This document shows positions 4,216-13,756 of a stretch of 13,756 bases of DNA, piece by piece. Below the pieces are notes generated by a model, which did not search any database, was not told the DNA's origin, and worked only from the letters and a program-made list of their open reading frames with translations. How positions within the stretch are numbered: the first letter of the stretch is position 1; each line of letters begins with the position of its first letter. The position numbers were made by a program, and so were the translations under genes. The DNA is from Vulcanimicrobiota bacterium (lineage in GTDB: Bacteria > Vulcanimicrobiota > Vulcanimicrobiia > Vulcanimicrobiales > Vulcanimicrobiaceae): assembly GCA_003133025.1 (NCBI GenBank), contig PKZK01000179.1, positions 1-13,756 on the forward strand. The letters are read 5' to 3'.

Positions 4216-5220
4216 ATGCGTCACATCCAGCGCGCCCTCGCGCCCCTTTCCGCTCTCGCCCTGCTCCCGCTGCTCGCGGCCTGCAGCGGCGCCGGTTCCT
4301 CGGCCCTCTCGCCCGCCGCCCTGCCCGCACAGTCGTCGTCCAAGCTCGCGTCCAAGTCGGTCGACGCGCTGGTCCCGGCCGCCGGCAGCTACACCTTCAC
4401 GACCCTGACCAATAGCGGCGACCCGACCTTCAACCAGTTGCTCGGCATCAACGACAGCGGCCTCATCGCCGGGTACTTCGGCGTCGGCACGAAGCAAAGC
4501 CCCAACAAGGGCTACACCTTGGCCTCGCCCTACGGTCCGAGCGATTACACGAACGAGAACTTCCCCGGCTCGGTGATGACGCAGGTCACCGGCATCAACA
4601 ACGCCGGCTCGACCTCCGGCTTCTGGGTCGACAAGCACGGCAACAACTACGGCTTCACGTACGTCAACGGCGCCTTCACGAGCTATTCGGATCAAGCCAA
4701 CGGCGGCGGCAACTTCAACCAACTGCTCGGCATCAACGACCACGGGTACGCAGTCGGCTTTTACACCGATAGCAACGGCATGAACCACGGCTACCGGCTC
4801 ACGCTCGCCGGACAAGTCTTCACCGAGATCGTTCCGCCCAGCGGCGGCTCGAACCTCAGCGCCACCGGCATCGACGACCAAGACGACGTCACCGGATTCT
4901 ACACGAACTCCTCGGGCACGGTTGTCGGATTCATCCTCAAGATGAAGACCTTCACGACCCTCTCGTATCCCGGTTCGATGTCGACCACGCCGTTCGGCAT
5001 CAACGAGAAGGACGAGATCGTCGGCTCGTACGTCGACGGCTCGGGCACGCAACACGGTTTCACCCTGACCAACGCGCTCAAGAAGCCGGTCTGGACCACC
5101 GTCGACAACCCGAACGGTGTCGGCAGCACCACGATCAACGGCGTGAACACGAAGGGCGAACTGGTCGGCTTCTATCAGCCCACCCCGACGACGTCCTACG
5201 CCTTCATCGCGACCAAGTAA
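4216..5220 (+). CDS. Lipoprotein with six GINxxG-x-x-x-G-F/Y (HAF-like extracellular) repeats, probable beta-propeller, 334 aa
   Basis: AGGAG RBS at 4203-4207 and ATG at 4216. Lipobox LAA-C. Repeats: LGINDSGLIAGYF, TGINNAGSTSGFW, LGINDHGYAVGFY, TGIDDQDDVTGFY, FGINEKDEIVGSY, NGVNTKGELVGFY. Confidence 0.85.
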   Translation: MRHIQRALAPLSALALLPLLAACSGAGSSALSPAALPAQSSSKLASKSVDALVPAAGSYTFTTLTNSGDPTFNQLLGINDSGLIAGYFGVGTKQSPNKGYTLASPYGPSDYTNENFPGSVMTQVTGINNAGSTSGFWVDKHGNNYGFTYVNGAFTSYSDQANGGGNFNQLLGINDHGYAVGFYTDSNGMNHGYRLTLAGQVFTEIVPPSGGSNLSATGIDDQDDVTGFYTNSSGTVVGFILKMKTFTTLSYPGSMSTTPFGINEKDEIVGSYVDGSGTQHGFTLTNALKKPVWTTVDNPNGVGSTTINGVNTKGELVGFYQPTPTTSYAFIATK

Positions 5221-5354: not shown

Positions 5355-5408
5355 TCCCCCGCAGATGATCTTGCAATCCTCCATCCTTTCCGAACCAGGA
5401 GCATGCTA

Positions 5409-6407
5409 ATGCGCCTTCTCAGCGTCTTGCCGCGCATCGGGATCCTCGCGATCCTGTTCGCGGTCGCGGTTCCGCCTGCACCGGCGCCCGCACAAGTTTC
5501 GATCGGCGTCGGCGTCGCGATCAACATCGGGCCGCCGCCGATTCCCGTCTACGTTCCGCCCCCGGTTCCGCAGCCGAATCTGATCTGGACTCCGGGCTAT
5601 TGGCAGTACGGCCCCTACGGTTACTTCTGGGTTCCCGGCGCATGGGTGCCGGCGCCCTATCCCGGTTACCTCTGGACCCCCGGTTATTGGGGTTACGGGG
5701 GCGGCCGCTACGCCTGGCACGCCGGCTATTGGGGCCCGCACGTGGGCTTCTACGGCGGCGTGAATTACGGCGCCGGCTACTTCGGCGTCGGCTTCGTGGG
5801 CGGCCAGTGGGCCGGCGGCGCGTTCCGCTACAACACCGCCGTGTACAACAACATCAACACGACGATCATTCACAACACGTACATCAACAAGACCGTCATC
5901 AACAACAACTACTACACCAGATCGCGTACCAGCTACTACGGCGGCCCGGGCGGCTTGACTCGTCCGCCGTTGCCCAACGAGACGGCGTACTCGCACGAGA
6001 CGCACGTCCCGGCGACGCCCATCCAGCGTCAGCACGTGCAAAACGCCCGCCTCGATCGCAACAACCTGGCCAGCGTCAACAAAGGTAGCCCGCTGACGCC
6101 CGCCGTTGCGCGCCCGTTGACGAAGGAAAACCGGCCGACGACGTTTGCGCCGGTCAAGGAATCCGACAAGATGGGAGGCGCAAACGGAGACTATCGCGCC
6201 AACCATCCGCAGTACGACGAGAACCATCCCGTGAAGCCGGCGGGTCAGAATCCGCCGCACCACAACAGCATGCAGGGCGAACAGAATCAAACGCATCATG
6301 CGCAGGGCAACGGTGGCGGACACAAGGTCCAGAACCCGCCGTCGGAAGCCAAGCAACACCCGCAGAACGAAGAGCACCCGAAGGAAGAGCACAAGCCGCC
6401 GCGTTAG
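5409..6407 (+). CDS. Secreted YXWGXW (WXXGXW) repeat protein with Asn-rich segment and disordered His/Gln/Glu tail, 332 aa
   Basis: AGGAG at 5397-5401 has better spacing to ATG 5409 than to 5403. Signal peptide ends APA-QVSIG, then a Pro-rich stretch. Repeats: IWTPGYW, FWVPGAW, LWTPGYW, AWHAGYW. Confidence 0.88.
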   Translation: MRLLSVLPRIGILAILFAVAVPPAPAPAQVSIGVGVAINIGPPPIPVYVPPPVPQPNLIWTPGYWQYGPYGYFWVPGAWVPAPYPGYLWTPGYWGYGGGRYAWHAGYWGPHVGFYGGVNYGAGYFGVGFVGGQWAGGAFRYNTAVYNNINTTIIHNTYINKTVINNNYYTRSRTSYYGGPGGLTRPPLPNETAYSHETHVPATPIQRQHVQNARLDRNNLASVNKGSPLTPAVARPLTKENRPTTFAPVKESDKMGGANGDYRANHPQYDENHPVKPAGQNPPHHNSMQGEQNQTHHAQGNGGGHKVQNPPSEAKQHPQNEEHPKEEHKPPR

Positions 6408-6427
6408 GCTCGACGTTCACCCGCACG

Positions 6428-6468
6428 AGAAGGCGTACCGCAAAACGGTGCGCCTTCTTTCTTTATTT
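6428..6468 (+). terminator. Rho-independent terminator
   Basis: 13-bp stem AGAAGGCGTACCG / CGGTGCGCCTTCT (one U-G pair), loop CAAAA, followed by TTCTTTATTT. Confidence 0.88.
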
Positions 6469-7233: not shown

Positions 7234-7287
7234 CTAGCGCTCCAGTGCCCAGGCACGGAGGGTACACCATTGTTGGAGGCTTTGCGC

Positions 7288-8262
7288 ATGCACCGCTCCT
7301 TGTTTTCCCGTGTTGCGGCACTCGGGTTTGCTGCCGCGGGGTTCGCCATAGCCGCGTCGCCGGCGCTGGCCGACGATTTCCTACAGCGAATCACGCTCGA
7401 TATCGCGCCGAACTACCAGGCTGCCGTCACCGGCGACGCCGCAGCTGCGAATCCCAAGGGATTCACGAATCTCGGCTATACGAACGACCATCAGGTCCCG
7501 GCGACGACTCAGCTCGACTACGGCTTGAATTTCCGCATCGACCGCCGCACGAATCTGTACTATTCGCACTCGAACCTCGACTTCGCCATCGGCCGCGTCC
7601 TGACGCTAGGCCCGAATACGGCGCTCGTCTCGGGCTTGATCGCGGACCGTACCGATACGGTCGGTTTCAGCCACGATTTCGCCGGCGGCCTCATCGGCCG
7701 CGCCTACTACTACAATCACGCCCGTATGGACGTCAGCGGTCTGTGCCTCAATCAGCAGGACTGCCCCAACCCGACGACCGGGCAGCAGACCGGTAACCCG
7801 TCATCGATCGCCGAGCACGGCTACGGCGTCGGCGCGACCTACAACTTCGGTCCGAAGACGCGCATCGGTCAGTTGCTCAGCGTGGGCCTCGATGCGAAGT
7901 ACGTCCCGCGCTCGAGCACGCCCCCGACGACCGCTCCGAATCTGGGCGGTCTCGGCAAATACGTCGGCAGCCAGTGGCTCGTGCCGTACTCGATCACCGC
8001 GAAGATCCCGGTTCTGCCCGTCAGCACGACGATTCCCTACATCGGATACGAGCGCGCCTCGGTGCTCTTCCGCGATGAGGCGACGCCGGAAGTCTACAAC
8101 GTGTCCGTTCTGGGCATCACCCAGGTCATCACCAAGCAGGTCTCGATCGGCATCCAGAGCCTGAACTTCTCGGGTTGCCGCTGCTCGGACACCGTTCCGC
8201 CTCCGGACAACATCCGATTCGCCCAGGTGCTGCTGCGTCTGGACTACAGGATCACGCCGTAA
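7288..8262 (+). CDS. Exported hypothetical protein, probable outer-membrane beta-barrel, 324 aa
   Basis: GGAGG at 7275-7279 and ATG at 7288. Signal peptide ends ALA-DD. Alternating amphipathic strands: LDYGLNFRI, LYYSHS, VGFSHDF, YGVGATYNF, LSVGLDAKYV, IPYIGYERA, VSIGIQSLNF and terminal VLLRLDYRI. The fold is inferred. Confidence 0.75.
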   Translation: MHRSLFSRVAALGFAAAGFAIAASPALADDFLQRITLDIAPNYQAAVTGDAAAANPKGFTNLGYTNDHQVPATTQLDYGLNFRIDRRTNLYYSHSNLDFAIGRVLTLGPNTALVSGLIADRTDTVGFSHDFAGGLIGRAYYYNHARMDVSGLCLNQQDCPNPTTGQQTGNPSSIAEHGYGVGATYNFGPKTRIGQLLSVGLDAKYVPRSSTPPTTAPNLGGLGKYVGSQWLVPYSITAKIPVLPVSTTIPYIGYERASVLFRDEATPEVYNVSVLGITQVITKQVSIGIQSLNFSGCRCSDTVPPPDNIRFAQVLLRLDYRITP

Positions 8263-8311
8263 CCCTCGACCAACGAACACCCACCGCATAACCGAATAGA
8301 AGAAGGACAGC

Positions 8312-9502
8312 ATGCGAAAGCGTTCAGTGTCCGCGCGAGTTCTCGCGGCACCGCTTGCGGTCGCGCTCGCCACGGCCGGAGGCATCGTGCCTCCGGCCGT
8401 CGGCGCTGCCGACGCCAAAGCCCCGGTCAACGTCGGGCTGATCTACTCGAAGACCGGGCTGCTCGGCGGCTACGGCGCCGAATACGCCGACGGTTTTGCA
8501 GCGGGGCTCGACTACGCCACCCACGGCACGGGCATGGCCGGCGGCCACAAGATCGTCGTGACCGAACGCGACGACGCGGGCGACCCCACCAAAGCCGTCG
8601 CCGCCGCCAAAGACTTGATCGGCCAGGGCTACAAGATTCTGGCGGGCTCCACGTCGTCGGGCGTCGCCTTGCAGATGGGCCCGCTCGCCGCCGACAACCA
8701 GGTGCTGTTCATCTCCGGTCCGGCCGCGGTCGACGCGATCACCGGCCTCAACAAGTACACCTTCCGTTCGGGACGTCAGACCTATCAGGACGTCGCGACC
8801 TCGGAGGCCGTCGTGGGCAACGTGCGCGGGAAGAAGATCCTCGTGCTCGCTCAGGATTCGGCCTTCGGACAAGCCAACTTCAAGACGGTCGAAGCGATTC
8901 TCGGCGCGGAGCGCGGCGCGGAGGTTTCGAACCTCTACGTGCCTCTGTCGGCCAACGACTTCGCGCCGTTCGCGCAGAAGATCAAAGACGCGAAGCCCGA
9001 TCTGCTATACGTCGCCTGGGCCGGCGCCACGGGCGCCGCGCTCTTCAAAACGCTCGACGATCAAGGCGTCTTCAACGTGACCAAGGTCGTCACGGGACTC
9101 GCCGATCGCGCCTCGTATCCGGCCTTCCAGCCGGTCGAGTCGAAGCTGACGTTCATCTCGTATTACTTCTATCAGGCGCCCAAGACCAAGGCCAATCAGT
9201 TCTTGATCGACGCGCTGAAGAAGCAGGGCAAAGTGCCCGACCTGTTCGATCCCGACGGCTTCGTAGCCGCCCAGATGATCGTTCGCGCGATCGAGAAATC
9301 CGACGGCACCGACGTAAACAAGATGATCGAGAGCCTCGACGGCTGGAGCTTCGATGCGCCCAAGGGCCGCGAGACGATTCGCGCCGCCGATCACGCCGTG
9401 CTCCAACCCATGTACGTCGCGAAACTCAGCGGCGCCGAGCCGCAGTTGATCCGTCAACTCGACGAAGCGGCGGTCGCGCCGCCGGTTCGACCTTTCAAAT
9501 AA
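8312..9502 (+). CDS. ABC transporter substrate-binding protein, type 1 periplasmic fold (LivK/HAAT family), 396 aa
   Basis: AAGGA RBS. Signal peptide without a lipobox. Motifs VGLIYSKTG, RDDAGDP, LAGSTSSGVAL, YTFR and QDSAFG. Confidence 0.92.
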   Translation: MRKRSVSARVLAAPLAVALATAGGIVPPAVGAADAKAPVNVGLIYSKTGLLGGYGAEYADGFAAGLDYATHGTGMAGGHKIVVTERDDAGDPTKAVAAAKDLIGQGYKILAGSTSSGVALQMGPLAADNQVLFISGPAAVDAITGLNKYTFRSGRQTYQDVATSEAVVGNVRGKKILVLAQDSAFGQANFKTVEAILGAERGAEVSNLYVPLSANDFAPFAQKIKDAKPDLLYVAWAGATGAALFKTLDDQGVFNVTKVVTGLADRASYPAFQPVESKLTFISYYFYQAPKTKANQFLIDALKKQGKVPDLFDPDGFVAAQMIVRAIEKSDGTDVNKMIESLDGWSFDAPKGRETIRAADHAVLQPMYVAKLSGAEPQLIRQLDEAAVAPPVRPFK

Positions 9503-9510
9503 CCGGCTAA

Positions 9511-10275
9511 ATGGAGTCCGGGCGCCCGCCGGCGCTTGAGGTCGAAGGCTTAGGCTTACGCATCGGCGGCGTCACGATCGTCGAAGACGTCTCGCTGCAG
9601 GTTCGCCGGGGCGAGTTCCTCGTGATCATCGGGCCCAACGGCGCCGGCAAGACGACGCTCTTCAACCTGATCTCGGGCTTTACGCGGCCCACCGCGGGGC
9701 GCATCACCTTCGGCGCGCACGATGTGACGCACGCTGCGCCGTACGAACGCGCGCGCTTGGGCTTGGGCCGTACGTTTCAAACCTCCACCGTGTTCGCCGG
9801 GCTTTCGACGTTCGAAAACGTGCGCTTAGCCGCGAGCGCGGCGTTGGGCACGAGCACCCGCATGTGGGATCGTGCCGACGGCGAGGCCGCTCCGCTCGCT
9901 CGCGCGCGCGCGGCGCTCGAGGAGGTCGGCCTCGGCGCGCGCGCCCAAACCATCGCCGCCCAACTCTCGCACGGTGAAAAGCGTAAGCTGGATCTGGCGA
10001 TCCTGCTTTGCTCGGAGCCGTCGGTCGTGCTCTTGGACGAGCCGACGGCCGGCATGGCCGTTGAAGAGGTCGGCGATATGGTCGACCTAATCCGGCGCAT
10101 CCATCGCGAACAGGCCAAGACCGTCATGATGGTCGAGCATCGCATGGATCTGGTGCTCAGCCTGGCCGATCGCATGGCCGTCATGCATCACGGCCGGCTG
10201 CTCGCGCTCGATACGCCCGAGCGCATCATCGCCAACGAAACCGTGCAGTCCGCGTATCTCGGCGATCCGCTATGA
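9511..10275 (+). CDS. livG: HAAT ABC transporter ATPase (LivG-like)
   Basis: Walker A GPNGAGKTT, RTFQ, signature LSHGE, Walker B VLLDEPTAG, H-loop VEHR, C-terminal AYLG. Confidence 0.93.
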   Translation: MESGRPPALEVEGLGLRIGGVTIVEDVSLQVRRGEFLVIIGPNGAGKTTLFNLISGFTRPTAGRITFGAHDVTHAAPYERARLGLGRTFQTSTVFAGLSTFENVRLAASAALGTSTRMWDRADGEAAPLARARAALEEVGLGARAQTIAAQLSHGEKRKLDLAILLCSEPSVVLLDEPTAGMAVEEVGDMVDLIRRIHREQAKTVMMVEHRMDLVLSLADRMAVMHHGRLLALDTPERIIANETVQSAYLGDPL

Positions 10276-10994
10276 ACGCAGGCGCCGAGGTCTTGCTTCG
10301 CGTCGAGAATCTGCGCGTCTCGATCGGCGAGTCGCAGATACTCGGCGGCGTGTCGTTCGGCGTGCGGCAGGGCGGCATCACGGGTTTGCTCGGCCGCAAC
10401 GGCGTGGGCAAGACCACGACCCTGCGCGGCATTTTGGGGCTCTTGCCCCGCACCGGAACGGTCACGCTCGCGGGCGAATCGCTCACCGCGTTGCCGGTGC
10501 ACGAGATCGTGCGGCGCGGCGTGGGTTACGTGCCCGAGGATCGCGACGTATTCGCGGGGTTGACGATCGAGGAAAACTTGCGCCTGACCGAACGCGCGGG
10601 CTCCGAGCATCGCTATCCGCTCGTCTACGAACTCTTCCCCGAGCTGCGCGATCGCGCCGCGCAACTCGCGGGCACGCTCTCCGGCGGACAACAGCAGATG
10701 CTCTCGCTCGCGCGCGCGCTGCTCAACGCATCGAACCGCATTTTGCTGATCGACGAACCGACCAAGGGACTCTCGCCCGTCGTCGTCAAGCGCGTCGCCG
10801 AGGCCTTGCAACGCGCCGCGGAGGTCACCACGATCCTTTTGGTCGAGCAGAACCTGGCCGTGGCGCGCCATCTCGTACGCGACGTCGTCGTGCTCGATCA
10901 GGGCCTGGTCACCTTTGCCGGAGACATCGCCGAACTCATCGACGATCCCGCGCTCGCGCGACGCCATCTCGGCCTGAGCGCGGCGGGGCACTGA
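10272..10994 (+). CDS. livF: HAAT ABC transporter ATPase (LivF-like)
   Basis: GRNGVGKTT, GYVPEDR, LSGGQQQM, LLIDEPTKG and VEQN. ATGA overlap with the preceding gene. Confidence 0.93.
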   Translation: MNAGAEVLLRVENLRVSIGESQILGGVSFGVRQGGITGLLGRNGVGKTTTLRGILGLLPRTGTVTLAGESLTALPVHEIVRRGVGYVPEDRDVFAGLTIEENLRLTERAGSEHRYPLVYELFPELRDRAAQLAGTLSGGQQQMLSLARALLNASNRILLIDEPTKGLSPVVVKRVAEALQRAAEVTTILLVEQNLAVARHLVRDVVVLDQGLVTFAGDIAELIDDPALARRHLGLSAAGH

Positions 10995-10998
10995 GACC

Positions 10999-11883
10999 AT
11001 GAGCACGATCGTTCTCTTGATCGTCACCGGGCTCGGCTTGGGCGCGCTCTATTTCCTCGTCGCGGCGGGCTTGTCGCTCATTTGGGGTTTGATGCGCGTG
11101 CTGAATTTTGCGCACGGCGCGTTTTTCACGGTGGCCGCCTACACGGGATTCTTCGCCGCCGCAGCGCTGGCCGGGACGTCGCCTTGGGTCGGCTGGTTTG
11201 CGAGCCTGGTCGCGGGCACGTTCGTCGGCGCCGTCTTCGCCACGTTGACGGAGATCGCGTTGATCCGGCCACTGTACCGCAGACCGGTGGGGCAAGTGCT
11301 CGTGACCGTCGGGCTTGCGCTCGCGACGCTCGCGCTCGTCGAGGGCGCTTTCGGCGCCGACCCGCGTCAGGTCACCGTGCCGCCCTGGATGGCCGCGACT
11401 ACGTCGATGCTCGGCGCGGCGATTCCCAATACGCGTTTCGTGGTCATCGTGCTCGCGGCGCTCGTGCTCTTCGGTTTGCTCTTTTTCTTACGTCGAACGC
11501 GCTACGGCTTGATCGTGCGTGCCGGCGTAGAGAATCGCGACATGGTTTCGGCGCTCGGCATCGACGTCCAGCGTGCGTTCACGCTGGTCTTCGCGATCGG
11601 CGGAGCCGCTGCGGGTCTCGCCGGCGTGTTGGCCGCGACCTACTACGGCACGATCGATCCGGGTCGGGGAACGGCGATGCTGATCTCCGCCTTCATCGTG
11701 GTGGTGATCGGCGGACTGGGCTCCATCGCGGGGTCCGCGCTGGCCGCGGTGCTGGTCGGGCTGCTGCAGCAATTCTTGAACTTCTACGCGGCCGCAGGCG
11801 TGGGCGACTTCGCGGTCGTGCTCTTGCTCGCGGTCGTGCTCTTGGTGCGGCCCGGCGGGTTGCTCGGCGGCAAGAGCGCGTGA
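10999..11883 (+). CDS. livH: HAAT ABC transporter permease (LivH-like)
   Basis: GLSLIWGLMRVLNFAHG, RTRYGLIVRA, AFIVVVIGGLGS, LLVRPGGLLG and multiple TM helices. Confidence 0.93.
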   Translation: MSTIVLLIVTGLGLGALYFLVAAGLSLIWGLMRVLNFAHGAFFTVAAYTGFFAAAALAGTSPWVGWFASLVAGTFVGAVFATLTEIALIRPLYRRPVGQVLVTVGLALATLALVEGAFGADPRQVTVPPWMAATTSMLGAAIPNTRFVVIVLAALVLFGLLFFLRRTRYGLIVRAGVENRDMVSALGIDVQRAFTLVFAIGGAAAGLAGVLAATYYGTIDPGRGTAMLISAFIVVVIGGLGSIAGSALAAVLVGLLQQFLNFYAAAGVGDFAVVLLLAVVLLVRPGGLLGGKSA

Positions 11884-12908
11884 GCAGAAACGTGCGCTTC
11901 GCGCTGCTCGCGGCATTAGCGTTGCTCGTGCTGCTTTTCCCCTTCATCCACGTGACGGTGCCGGGACTTTTCGAGGGGCCGCTCGACAGCGCCGGAACGC
12001 TCAATCTGCTCGGCCTCTGCTTCGTCTTCGGCGCGCTCGCGCTGACCTACGATATCGTTTTCGGCTACACGGGATTGCTCTCGTTCGGGCACGCGCTCTA
12101 CTTTGCCGTGGGCGTGTACGTGACCGCGATCGCGCTCGCGCGCTGGCATTGGTCGCTGCCCGCCGCACTGGTCTTGACGGCGGTCGTCGCCGTGCTGTTG
12201 CCGCTCGCGCTCGGCGCGATCTGTTTGCGCGTGCGCGACATTCCATTCGCCATGGTGACGCTCGCGTTTGCCGAAGCCGGCTCGATTCTGGTGTTGCAGA
12301 ATCCGTTCGGCTTGACCGGCGGCGAAGAGGGCTTGGCGCTGGGCGGGGGCGTGTTGCCCGCGGCGCTGGTGGGTGTGTCTAATACCGCGCACCTCTATTG
12401 GATCGCGGCCGGATTGCTTGCGGCCACATCGCTGATCGGCTGGTGGGCCGTGGGCTCGCCGCTGGGCCGCGTGTGGCAGGCGATCCGCGAAAACGAGCGG
12501 CGCGTGACCGCACTCGGGCTCAATCCCTATCTTTACAAGCTGGCGTCGTTCGTGCTCTCCGGCTTTCTGGCCGCGTGCGCGGGCGTGGCCTATCTGCTCT
12601 TGCAAGGCGGCGCGAATCCACAGGTGACGACCTCGAGCTTTACGTTGGTGCTGCTGGTGATGGTCGTCCTCGGCGGGGTCGGGACGCTGTGGGGCGCGGT
12701 GCTCGGCGGGATCGTCTACGAGTATCTCGATTTTCGGCTCGTCGAATTCTCCAACGTTCCCGCGCTGCAGGCCCTGCCGGGAGTGCTTCGCGTGCCGCTG
12801 TCGGAACCGCTGTTCATACTTGGTGTGCTCTTTATCGTGCTCGTCCTGTTTCTGCCTCAAGGGCTCGGCGGGCTCGTGCGCAGCGCCGGCGCGCGCTCGG
12901 AGCGGTAG
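11880..12908 (+). CDS. livM: HAAT ABC transporter permease (LivM-like), 342 aa
   Basis: GTG start at 11880 overlaps the livH stop (GTGA). Motifs GYTGLLSFGHA, FAMVTLAF, TGGEEG, AIRENE, MVVLGGVG and FLPQG. Confidence 0.92.
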   Translation: MSRNVRFALLAALALLVLLFPFIHVTVPGLFEGPLDSAGTLNLLGLCFVFGALALTYDIVFGYTGLLSFGHALYFAVGVYVTAIALARWHWSLPAALVLTAVVAVLLPLALGAICLRVRDIPFAMVTLAFAEAGSILVLQNPFGLTGGEEGLALGGGVLPAALVGVSNTAHLYWIAAGLLAATSLIGWWAVGSPLGRVWQAIRENERRVTALGLNPYLYKLASFVLSGFLAACAGVAYLLLQGGANPQVTTSSFTLVLLVMVVLGGVGTLWGAVLGGIVYEYLDFRLVEFSNVPALQALPGVLRVPLSEPLFILGVLFIVLVLFLPQGLGGLVRSAGARSER

Positions 12909-12988: not shown

Positions 12989-13052
12989 AGGTAGTGACGC
13001 AGACTGGGCGCATTGCCCGCAGCGTTTCGCTCCCTGAGAAAGACGAGGATTT

Positions 13053-13756
13053 ATGACCACAGCCGTGCTCGATACCCAGACGCTGTACGACCTGTCGAGT
13101 TTGGGGATCGAAAACCCGTACAAACGCCGCTACGATAATTTCATCGGCGGAAAGTTCGTACCACCCGCCAACGGCGAGTACTTCCTGAACATCTCGCCGG
13201 TCGTCGGCGAGCCCTTCACGGAAATCGCCCGTTCGACCAGCGAAGACGTCGAGCGCGCCCTCGATGCGGCGCATGCCGCCAAGGACGCCTGGGGCCGCAC
13301 CTCGGTCGCCGAGCGTTCGGCCATCCTCAACAAGATCGCCGATCGCATGGAAGCCAATCTGCCGCGCCTGGCGCTGGCCGAGACGCTCGACAACGGCAAA
13401 CCGATCCGCGAAACGACGTTGGCCGACATCCCGCTCGCGATCGATCACTTCCGCTATTTCGCCGGAGCGATCCGCGCGCAGGAAGGCGGCATCAGCCAGA
13501 TCGACAACGAGACGGTCGCCTATCACTTCCACGAGCCGCTCGGCGTCGTCGGCCAGATCATTCCGTGGAATTTCCCGATCCTGATGGCCGTGTGGAAGCT
13601 CGCGCCGGCGCTCGCCGCGGGAAATTGCGTCGTGCTCAAACCGGCCGAACAGACGCCGGCCTCGATCATGATCTTGATCGAACTGATCGCGGATCTCTTG
13701 CCGCCGGGCGTGCTCAACGTCGTCGAAGGCTTCGGCCTGGAAGCCGGCAAGCCGCT
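13053..13756 (+). CDS. aldB: NAD-dependent aldehyde dehydrogenase, AldB/AcoD/ExaC (acetaldehyde dehydrogenase) type, 3'-truncated by the window edge
   Basis: GAGGA RBS and ATG at 13053. Manual translation: MTTAVLD...YDNFIGG...[36 protein letters not shown]...[16 protein letters not shown]...[22 protein letters not shown]. Absent from the ORF track, presumably because it has no stop in the window. Confidence 0.93.

Follow-up and report, generated by a model that had tools for sequence, protein, structure and literature searches.

LamB, which is co-encoded with MalEFGK, is a specific outer-membrane channel set beside an ATP-binding cassette (ABC) importer. Structurally it is an 18-stranded trimer, as described in a passage of PMC4849052. 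In Methylophilus methylotrophus the fmdCABDEF cluster couples the FmdC porin to a binding-protein-dependent importer of amides and urea, according to passages in the published accounts (PMC10781810; also 10.1101/138586, PMC5877670). The window considered here, that is the whole stretch of 13,756 nucleotides of contig PKZK01000179.1 from a Vulcanimicrobiota bacterium (assembly GCA_003133025.1), likewise places a gene for a predicted outer-membrane porin beside a binding-protein-dependent importer, in this case a 12-stranded β-barrel protein of 324 amino acids followed by the five genes of a Liv-type ABC importer of the HAAT family. The two-membrane uptake system proposed from a sequence-only reading of this DNA is therefore supported in its architecture, although the combination of a porin with a HAAT-type importer is not in itself a new design, fmdCABDEF being the precedent. 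What is new is the family of putative channels to which the barrel protein belongs. In our view the barrel is probably a channel that is functionally coupled to the importer behind it.

The features on which this rests are the following, SBP denoting the substrate-binding protein and RNA-run contigs the contigs assembled from RNA sequencing runs.

7240..7287, + strand: probable 5′ leader of the barrel transcript, based on RNA-run contig starts at 7245, 7248 and 7252
7240-7260, + strand: small CTCC..GGAG hairpin in the leader, noted only
7275-7279, + strand: GGAGG ribosome-binding site of the barrel gene
7288..7371, + strand: predicted Sec/SPI signal peptide, residues 1-28, ending in SPALA (from translation, conservation and model helix H3-32)
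7288..8262, + strand: gene for the predicted 12-stranded outer-membrane β-barrel, 324 aa, of an unnamed lineage-restricted family
8263..8311, + strand: 49-bp spacer between barrel and SBP genes, without a terminator-like hairpin
8300-8307, + strand: ribosome-binding site of the SBP gene, AAGAAGGA, inside that spacer
8312..9502, + strand: HAAT-family periplasmic SBP without lipobox (PF13458, Peripla_BP_6, E 7.9e-58)
9511..10275, + strand: LivG-type ABC ATPase (Pfam ABC_tran; NCBIfam)
10272..10994, + strand: LivF-type ABC ATPase (Pfam ABC_tran; NCBIfam)
10999..11883, + strand: LivH-type permease (PF02653, BPD_transp_2, E 4.7e-39)
11880..12908, + strand: LivM-type permease (PF02653, BPD_transp_2, E 7.4e-36)

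The open reading frame (ORF) of the barrel protein, 7288-8262 on the plus strand, has its GGAGG site at a distance of 8 nt from the ATG, and its stop lies exactly 49 bp from the SBP start at 8312. Thereafter the genes are coupled by 8 bp (SBP/livG), a 4-bp overlap (livG/livF), 4 bp (livF/livH) and a second 4-bp overlap (livH/livM), base for base as first described. The importer corresponds to the HAAT definition, with one Peripla_BP_6 SBP, two BPD_transp_2 permeases and two ABC_tran ATPases, all intact and tightly coupled, and the Pfam matches to all five components confirm that it is complete. A terminator between barrel and SBP genes had been said to be absent; indeed, a terminator scan gives no site between 8262 and 8312, and the spacer folds at -5.6 kcal/mol (z -0.27), no better than shuffled sequence. 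The leader hairpin is also no better than shuffles (z -0.30), with no consensus structure, and a scan of the window found no sigma-70 consensus promoter. The SBP contains no cysteine at all, whereas the ORFs at 284 and 4216 each have a lipobox cysteine (Cys23), such that the earlier distinction between this SBP and the two lipoproteins of the window holds.

RNA-run contigs are consistent with an operon that starts at the barrel gene. Seventeen RNA runs contain part of the window and four were aligned to it, X3 and X4 apparently being one dataset. Near-identical contigs from three datasets start at 7248, 7245 and 7252, 36-43 nt before the barrel ATG; a contig covering 7974-8359 spans the barrel stop to the SBP start and reaches 48 bases inside the SBP gene, and another (9419-9677) spans the SBP-livG junction. 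The permease genes and a NUDIX gene have no or almost no cover by such contigs, which is not taken as evidence.

The barrel protein itself matches no Pfam and no NCBIfam family. At E <= 0.001 its family comprises 46 proteins in the 90% collection, none with a precomputed Pfam domain, and 41 members among 1.84 billion 50% representatives; with more than 100 sequences in all, the protein is an 'orphan', as it had been called, only in the sense that its family is unnamed. Across 57 members searched at E 0.1, the sole Pfam family matched was PF13505 (OMP_b-brl), and this weakly, in 4 of the 57 (best E 4e-4). Profile searches of the Protein Data Bank (PDB) gave weak FrpB matches only (E 0.007) and no KdgM or NanC chain at E 10. 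Neither the barrel nor any of the 57 members matches PF13557 of the COG4313 group, and hhalign, run against the COG4313 protein of a neighbouring locus, gave a probability of 0.4%. Full-text literature searches on porins, outer membranes and β-barrels of Eremiobacterota, with subscription journals and supplements outside their scope, yielded no description of such a channel family. The sequence-only reading had not recognised the family, and by Pfam, NCBIfam, PDB profiles and hhalign no described porin family accounts for it; by these sources and the literature, it is an undescribed, lineage-restricted family of putative channels.

AlphaFold2, run on the 46-sequence alignment, predicts a signal helix and 12 long strands (mean predicted local distance difference test, pLDDT, 84.6; predicted template modelling score, pTM, 0.78) at residues 35-46, 72-83, 88-99, 118-132, 135-149, 176-191, 194-206, 229-239, 248-259, 268-280, 285-296 and 310-322. 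This is a membrane-type barrel, neither soluble nor helical, in agreement with the amphipathic strands originally noted and with the structural matches given below. The connections between the modelled strands alternate between long loops and turns of 2-8 residues, the short turns being predicted to be periplasmic, and over the 46 homologues polar and apolar columns alternate in most strands, weakly in strands 3, 4, 10 and 11. As to the aromatic β-signal typical of the C-terminus of such barrels, the last strand alternates well (..LRLDYRITP), and of the 46 sequences 32 have Leu as the final residue, 7 have Phe and 3 have Pro. Signal peptide cleavage is predicted at SPALA|DD, where A28 and D29 are invariant in 30 close homologues. 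Other marks of an outer-membrane barrel (cleavable signal peptide, even number of amphipathic antiparallel strands, short turns alternating with long loops) are present by prediction. Cys153/Cys159 and Cys297/Cys299 fall in predicted outer loops, all four being kept in 36 of the 46 sequences, while R146, D120, H94, D202, K204, K239 and N271 are conserved polar residues predicted, from column alternation in the alignment rather than from model coordinates, to face the lumen.

When the model was compared with 48,161 solved chains, the best matches were PcoB (Z 14.6), VhGalP (14.2), KdgM (14.1, with a root-mean-square deviation, rmsd, of 3.0 over 167 residues), NanC (13.8), FapF (13.7) and COG4313 (12.8), all of them 12-stranded outer-membrane barrels and the top five tied; autotransporter barrels, LpxR, Tsx and OMPLA followed, with identities of 5-12% throughout. 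The nearest clusters of the ESM Atlas are porins (score 0.95, 144-155 shared features). Foldseek against the PDB gave generic porin and FadL matches only (TM ~0.35-0.42, rmsd 12-14) and no close relative. LamB matches only at Z 7.9, being an 18-stranded trimer as opposed to a 12-stranded barrel. The likeness to KdgM, NanC and VhGalP, which are 12-stranded channels for acidic sugars, extends beyond strand number, since no occluding N-terminal segment is predicted for the barrel, and conserved basic residues lie, as in KdgM and NanC, on its predicted lumen face. Against this, identity to these proteins is 5-10%, there is no match to the Pfam KdgM family, phylum and gene context differ, and the solved chains have 171-210 residues whereas the mature barrel has ~296, the excess consisting of long Pro/Gly-rich outer loops with the Cys pairs. 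The COG4313/Phenol_MetA_deg barrels (Pput2725, SphA, TcpY) are of similar size, match over 230 residues and are linked to catabolic clusters. In Pput2725 ~14 N-terminal residues are folded into the lumen, according to the relevant passage of PMC4493636. The barrel model, which was made with the signal peptide included, shows only ~6 residues between the predicted cleavage site and strand 1, and apparently no long N-terminal plug. A COG4313/Phenol_MetA_deg barrel that is unrelated by profile is encoded two genes upstream of a family barrel, on the opposite strand, at one homologous locus (L031:10834-11751).

The host is judged to be diderm because its genome (G000, 80% complete, of which the window is contig C196) encodes an Omp85 protein and because the phylum is reported, in passages of PMC6664022 and PMC9758169, to have an outer membrane. 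Named homologues are mostly from Ca. Baltobacteraceae or Ca. Aquilonibacter, with one labelled Ca. Acidoferrum, and the sequence records of homologues carry the names Vulcanimicrobiota or Ca. Eremiobacteraeota. Of 401 genomes sampled from the phylum, 49 contain the barrel family by a narrow alignment and 73 by a wider one. All of them belong to the window's own taxonomic family (48 and 72 of its 296 genomes), whereas the 104 genomes searched from 20 other families gave none. The orthologous SBP is found in 52 of the 401; both this tally and that of 73 include G359, which is flagged unpublished and underlies none of the other statements. G000 itself, within its 80% completeness, yielded no second family member, and none of the 11 other Peripla_BP_6 loci displayed (from 13 Peripla_BP_6 matches in all) has one beside it. 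A candidate member at G039:C70 (L169) was rejected as a 629-aa protein with a weak N-terminal match only.

The coupling of barrel and importer is argued for by conserved gene neighbourhood. In the fetched loci (L numbers), genes were called with a simple hexamer model and labelled by BLAST and Pfam. Of 28 metagenome loci, 20 have the barrel gene directly upstream of an orthologous SBP gene, 6 have it among other neighbours and 2 are truncated; with identical proteins merged, there are 13 linked against 5 unlinked. Three further loci, one a duplicate and two ending at or near the barrel, were left out of the count. Among 45 genome loci (the window and 44 other matches at E <= 1e-20 with the narrow alignment), 21 are linked to the same orthologous Liv module, 18 seen directly and three inferred across contig breaks, their SBPs being 52-84% identical. 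The linkage takes four forms: the barrel gene may immediately precede the module (the window, L031), immediately follow livM (L035, L037), precede the module with a reversed pair of GAF-kinase and LuxR genes in between (14 loci of one genus and L058), or lie downstream in convergent orientation (L067, L068). Although kin are not independent, a link to one single-copy module that is kept through four rearrangements is far above chance, and the transporter linkage anticipated for the homologues is thereby strongly upheld. Linked barrels occur in five of 12 genera, scattered over a tree that requires at least seven gains or losses of linkage, this being a quick tree of 55 rows with long-branch warnings and an uncertain root. 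The simplest reading is an ancestral link between barrel and importer with several losses.

A histidine kinase of the GAF-HisKA_3 type accompanies barrel and SBP across genera in either orientation (L036, L039-L058, L080-L082, L087, L095, L121-L141, L151), in many cases together with a LuxR-type regulator; no close orthologue of the kinase was found in G000. A ~20-bp motif is conserved 60-80 bp upstream of the barrel ATG (L121, L123, L125-L127, L130, L141), at most loci with the kinase and some without; at this position the window's subclade conserves another sequence. The motif is possibly a regulator site. One identical barrel protein is found twice, before the usual SBP (L121) and divergent from a second Liv-type system (L120), which suggests a recent duplication or relocation, or else an assembly artefact.

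Distant paralogues, 17-30% identical and without a Pfam match in any of 12 scanned, lie beside other importers. Among 16 weaker matches and L153, seven adjoin such genes, namely a major facilitator superfamily (MFS) transporter of aromatic-acid type (L153), SSF permeases (L155, L157), a sugar SBP with permease (L163), MFS transporters (L165, L166) and an XylF-like SBP (L168). With the prediction fixed beforehand, 40 further loci were then fetched, 39 with a callable barrel, and of their 141 neighbours 77, selected by eye, were scanned. At 8 of the 39 an importer gene belonging to the defined classes lies within two genes (Pfam identifying 6 and likeness to a scanned orthologue the other 2), three of these eight being kin of L168, as one does at 11 of the 39 under a looser rule counting ATPases and other SBP classes, against a background taken from another genome, G000, of 187 importer genes in 3120 (6%). 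Many of the remaining distant loci belong to clusters for the catabolism of aromatic or acyl-CoA compounds (LigXa-type Rieske, LigB, CHMI, FAA hydrolase, pyrroloquinoline quinone (PQQ) dehydrogenases). In one genus (L159, L161, L164, L156) the neighbours of a paralogue group are a type III polyketide synthase and an ICMT-like methyltransferase instead of an importer.

At one of these distant loci (L174, 2-6895) an FmdA formamidase (over cut-off) and an FmdB-like zinc ribbon precede a barrel-family gene, which is followed after 4 bp by a urea ABC SBP (over cut-off) and four more transporter genes, mirroring the fmd cluster. The member is recognised by a profile match of E 1.5e-48, on which its fold also rests, a single-sequence prediction having reached a pLDDT of 30. 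FmdC itself is a larger, OprP/OprO-like porin, and the likeness drawn here is one of gene position only, not a comparison of sequences. In the window, by contrast, the SBP lies far below the cut-offs for urea-binding proteins, and the barrel matches no Pfam porin family.

Indeed, the SBP reaches 67.7 bits against the LivK/LivJ model NF011933 (cut-off 477), and 72.4 and 54.2 bits against the UrtA-type models TIGR03407 (cut-off 492.75) and TIGR03669 (494.8). Among solved structures it comes closest to 3N0X/3NND (E 2e-51 over residues 39-373), which we take to be a binding protein of R. palustris. The linked SBP is one of a widespread HAAT subfamily whose structure has been solved (3N0X), and the label 'branched-chain amino acid' is likely to be a misannotation. 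A 3-hydroxybutyrate dehydrogenase lies directly upstream of the barrel gene at 14 loci of one genus (the one representative scanned being over three NCBIfam cut-offs), a further one is found just downstream of the operon in L141, and in L138 a polyhydroxyalkanoate (PHA) depolymerase, PhaZ (over cut-off), and a PhaC-like synthase gene lie two and three genes from the barrel. Acyl-CoA ligase, enoyl-CoA hydratase (ECH), MaoC, acyl-CoA dehydrogenase and a tannase-like hydrolase recur as neighbours. SBP relatives in other phyla share the order SBP-ATPase-ATPase-permease-permease and sit with AMP-binding, ECH, MaoC or CoA-transferase genes. Outside the window, G000 carries a gene resembling 3-hydroxybutyrate dehydrogenase, which passes one of three cut-offs, and at C61:29320-32828 a PhaC-like gene that adjoins a tannase-like one. 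The tannase-like hydrolase family, which recurs beside the Liv module (L035:6074-7348), may be a hydrolase of 3-hydroxybutyrate oligomers or of PHA.

Carboxylic acids are preferred as cargo over branched-chain amino acids because the neighbours are 3-hydroxybutyrate dehydrogenase, PHA depolymerase and synthase, and acyl-CoA ligase. Published passages point in the same direction, in that most 'branched-chain' SBPs of R. palustris bound aromatic, fatty or dicarboxylic acids (PMC3223731), and V. alpinus, with many LivKHGMF genes, did not grow on branched-chain amino acids (PMC9758169). On these neighbours, it is an evenly balanced proposition that the importer takes up a carboxylic acid of small to medium size for acyl-CoA metabolism, and 3-hydroxybutyrate itself is a tentative choice, somewhat less likely than not, much of its signal coming from one genus.

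On the preferred reading the barrel protein would be exported by Sec and inserted by the BAM machinery to act as a passive, moderately selective outer-membrane channel, probably co-transcribed with the HAAT-type importer. The barrel would admit a solute to the periplasm, the free SBP there would bind it and LivHMGF would pump it inward, the lead candidates being 3-hydroxybutyrate or related 3-hydroxyacids and their short oligomers, not Leu, Ile or Val. Direct contact between barrel and SBP forms no part of this proposal, and a prediction of their complex (residues 29-324 with 35-396, 28-row alignments) scored 0.00, which is not evidence either way.

Several observations weigh against this reading. 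Of the 52 genomes with the orthologous SBP, 49 were examined: the barrel gene is beside it in 17, is inferred to be so in three and was not found there in 29, around a third of these 29 loci being shortened by contig ends. Nor did a 95-sequence profile reveal a barrel at the negative SBP loci. In other phyla, four loci of this SBP type that carry annotation (Rhodococcus, Hoeflea, Nitratireductor, Chloroflexota) share the gene order and list no porin or other outer-membrane channel; a fifth locus was unannotated. Since the importer is often without an adjacent barrel, and the annotated loci of other phyla are without a porin, the importer can work without this channel in cis. Conversely, the 45 genome barrel loci include 24 that lack the link. 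A clade of 12 members located by ribosomal, PQQ-dehydrogenase or unrelated genes is part of these, as is a five-member paralogue group with the order BKACE, barrel, MFS, acyl-CoA ligase. The enrichment of importers around distant members is modest. RNA-run contigs are assembled and strandless, with DNA carry-over possible, and a contig over two genes is no proof of one transcript. As to cargo, the window contains no 3-hydroxybutyrate gene, the next gene encoding an ExaC-like aldehyde dehydrogenase; the literature searched gave no ligand for an SBP of the 3N0X type, and passages of PMC3223731 make no mention of the locus tag associated with it. The barrel is hence an accessory, not an obligate, part of the importer system, and 'dedicated', the term originally applied to the channel, is too strong, with more than half of the SBP-carrying genomes lacking an adjacent barrel and about half of the genome loci lying away from the importer.

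The same facts can be read as those of a fairly general porin for small solutes, parked by the lineage in a well-expressed scavenging operon and co-regulated with the importer, without particular selectivity for its ligand. Family members next to importers of quite different chemistry (urea/amide, sugars, aromatic acids, SSF), or at unlinked sites, for instance in operons of ribosomal proteins, are what such a porin would give, as are the identical barrel linked in L121 and elsewhere in L120, the many importers without a barrel, and a model which, lacking a long plug, fits an open NanC-like pore. Its occurrence, however, is patchy even with the wide profile, unlike that of a housekeeping porin; the paralogues at different importers are deeply diverged, as specialisation predicts; and the core clade retains one orthologous importer through four rearrangements. 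A general porin is, in our judgement, improbable.

Alternatively, the barrel might have a catalytic or processing role in the outer membrane, such as that of an esterase freeing an acid for the importer. LpxR and OMPLA are 12-stranded outer-membrane enzymes, and both are among the structural matches (Z 12.2 and 11.2); the core clade has conserved His, Asp, Glu and Arg residues and two Cys pairs, and hydrolases are frequent among the neighbours. Channels nevertheless outrank enzymes in the structural comparison, R146 alone is invariant in a wide alignment of 57 diverse members, with no His or Ser nearly so, the polar residues of highest conservation are on the predicted lumen face of strands, and a single activity is ill-suited to urea, sugar and aromatic loci alike, so that an enzyme is very improbable. 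A true Liv system, in which the barrel would be a channel for Leu, Ile and Val and the branched-chain annotation correct, agrees with the match of all five importer genes to Liv-type Pfam families and is scarcely credible in view of an SBP at 68 bits against a cut-off of 477 with 3N0X/3NND as closest solved relatives, neighbours that are hydroxyacid, PHA and acyl-CoA genes, and the published passages noted above (PMC3223731, PMC9758169), which point away from branched-chain amino acids.

If the barrel is a coupled channel, the family offers a handle, with a confidently predicted fold, on the uptake of dilute solutes by Eremiobacterota, which are abundant in nutrient-poor soils and peat, have one cultured representative in the literature found, and on whose porins the searches turned up no publication. 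Because the paralogues adjoin very different importers, they form a natural series for the gain of selectivity in 12-stranded barrels. More speculatively, and we think this rather unlikely to hold in full, the barrel may be the founding member of a lineage-specific set of selective 12-stranded channels that, in Vulcanimicrobiaceae-type Eremiobacterota, replace the proteobacterial FmdC, OprB, Occ and COG4313 proteins, with one diverged paralogue per importer, the window's clade being the first outer-membrane channel and ABC importer dedicated to scavenging 3-hydroxybutyrate or other products of PHA breakdown from oligotrophic soils and peat.

At two homologous loci (L032:9192-10487 and L033), the gene directly upstream of the barrel encodes a protein that combines a copper-amine-oxidase N-terminal domain with a C-terminus resembling a β-signal (..GIGIKF); these proteins may be another type of outer-membrane barrel. 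Elsewhere in the window, of the two lipoproteins at 284-1267 and 4216-5220 (each with Cys23), one has NHL/β-propeller repeats and the other repeated 'GIND' motifs and no significant Pfam match. An exported protein with WXXGXW repeats and a long Pro/His/Gln-rich tail is encoded at 5403-6459, where RNA-run contigs from two runs end at 6423-6424, just before a strong terminator-like hairpin at 6427-6459. Beyond livM, the ExaC-like acetaldehyde dehydrogenase gene (13053-13756, cut by the window end) is covered by RNA-run contigs that start at 13004-13006, separately from the Liv genes. Genes for ExaC and for PQQ alcohol dehydrogenases are also found next to barrel homologues, in L048, L049 and L062-L064.

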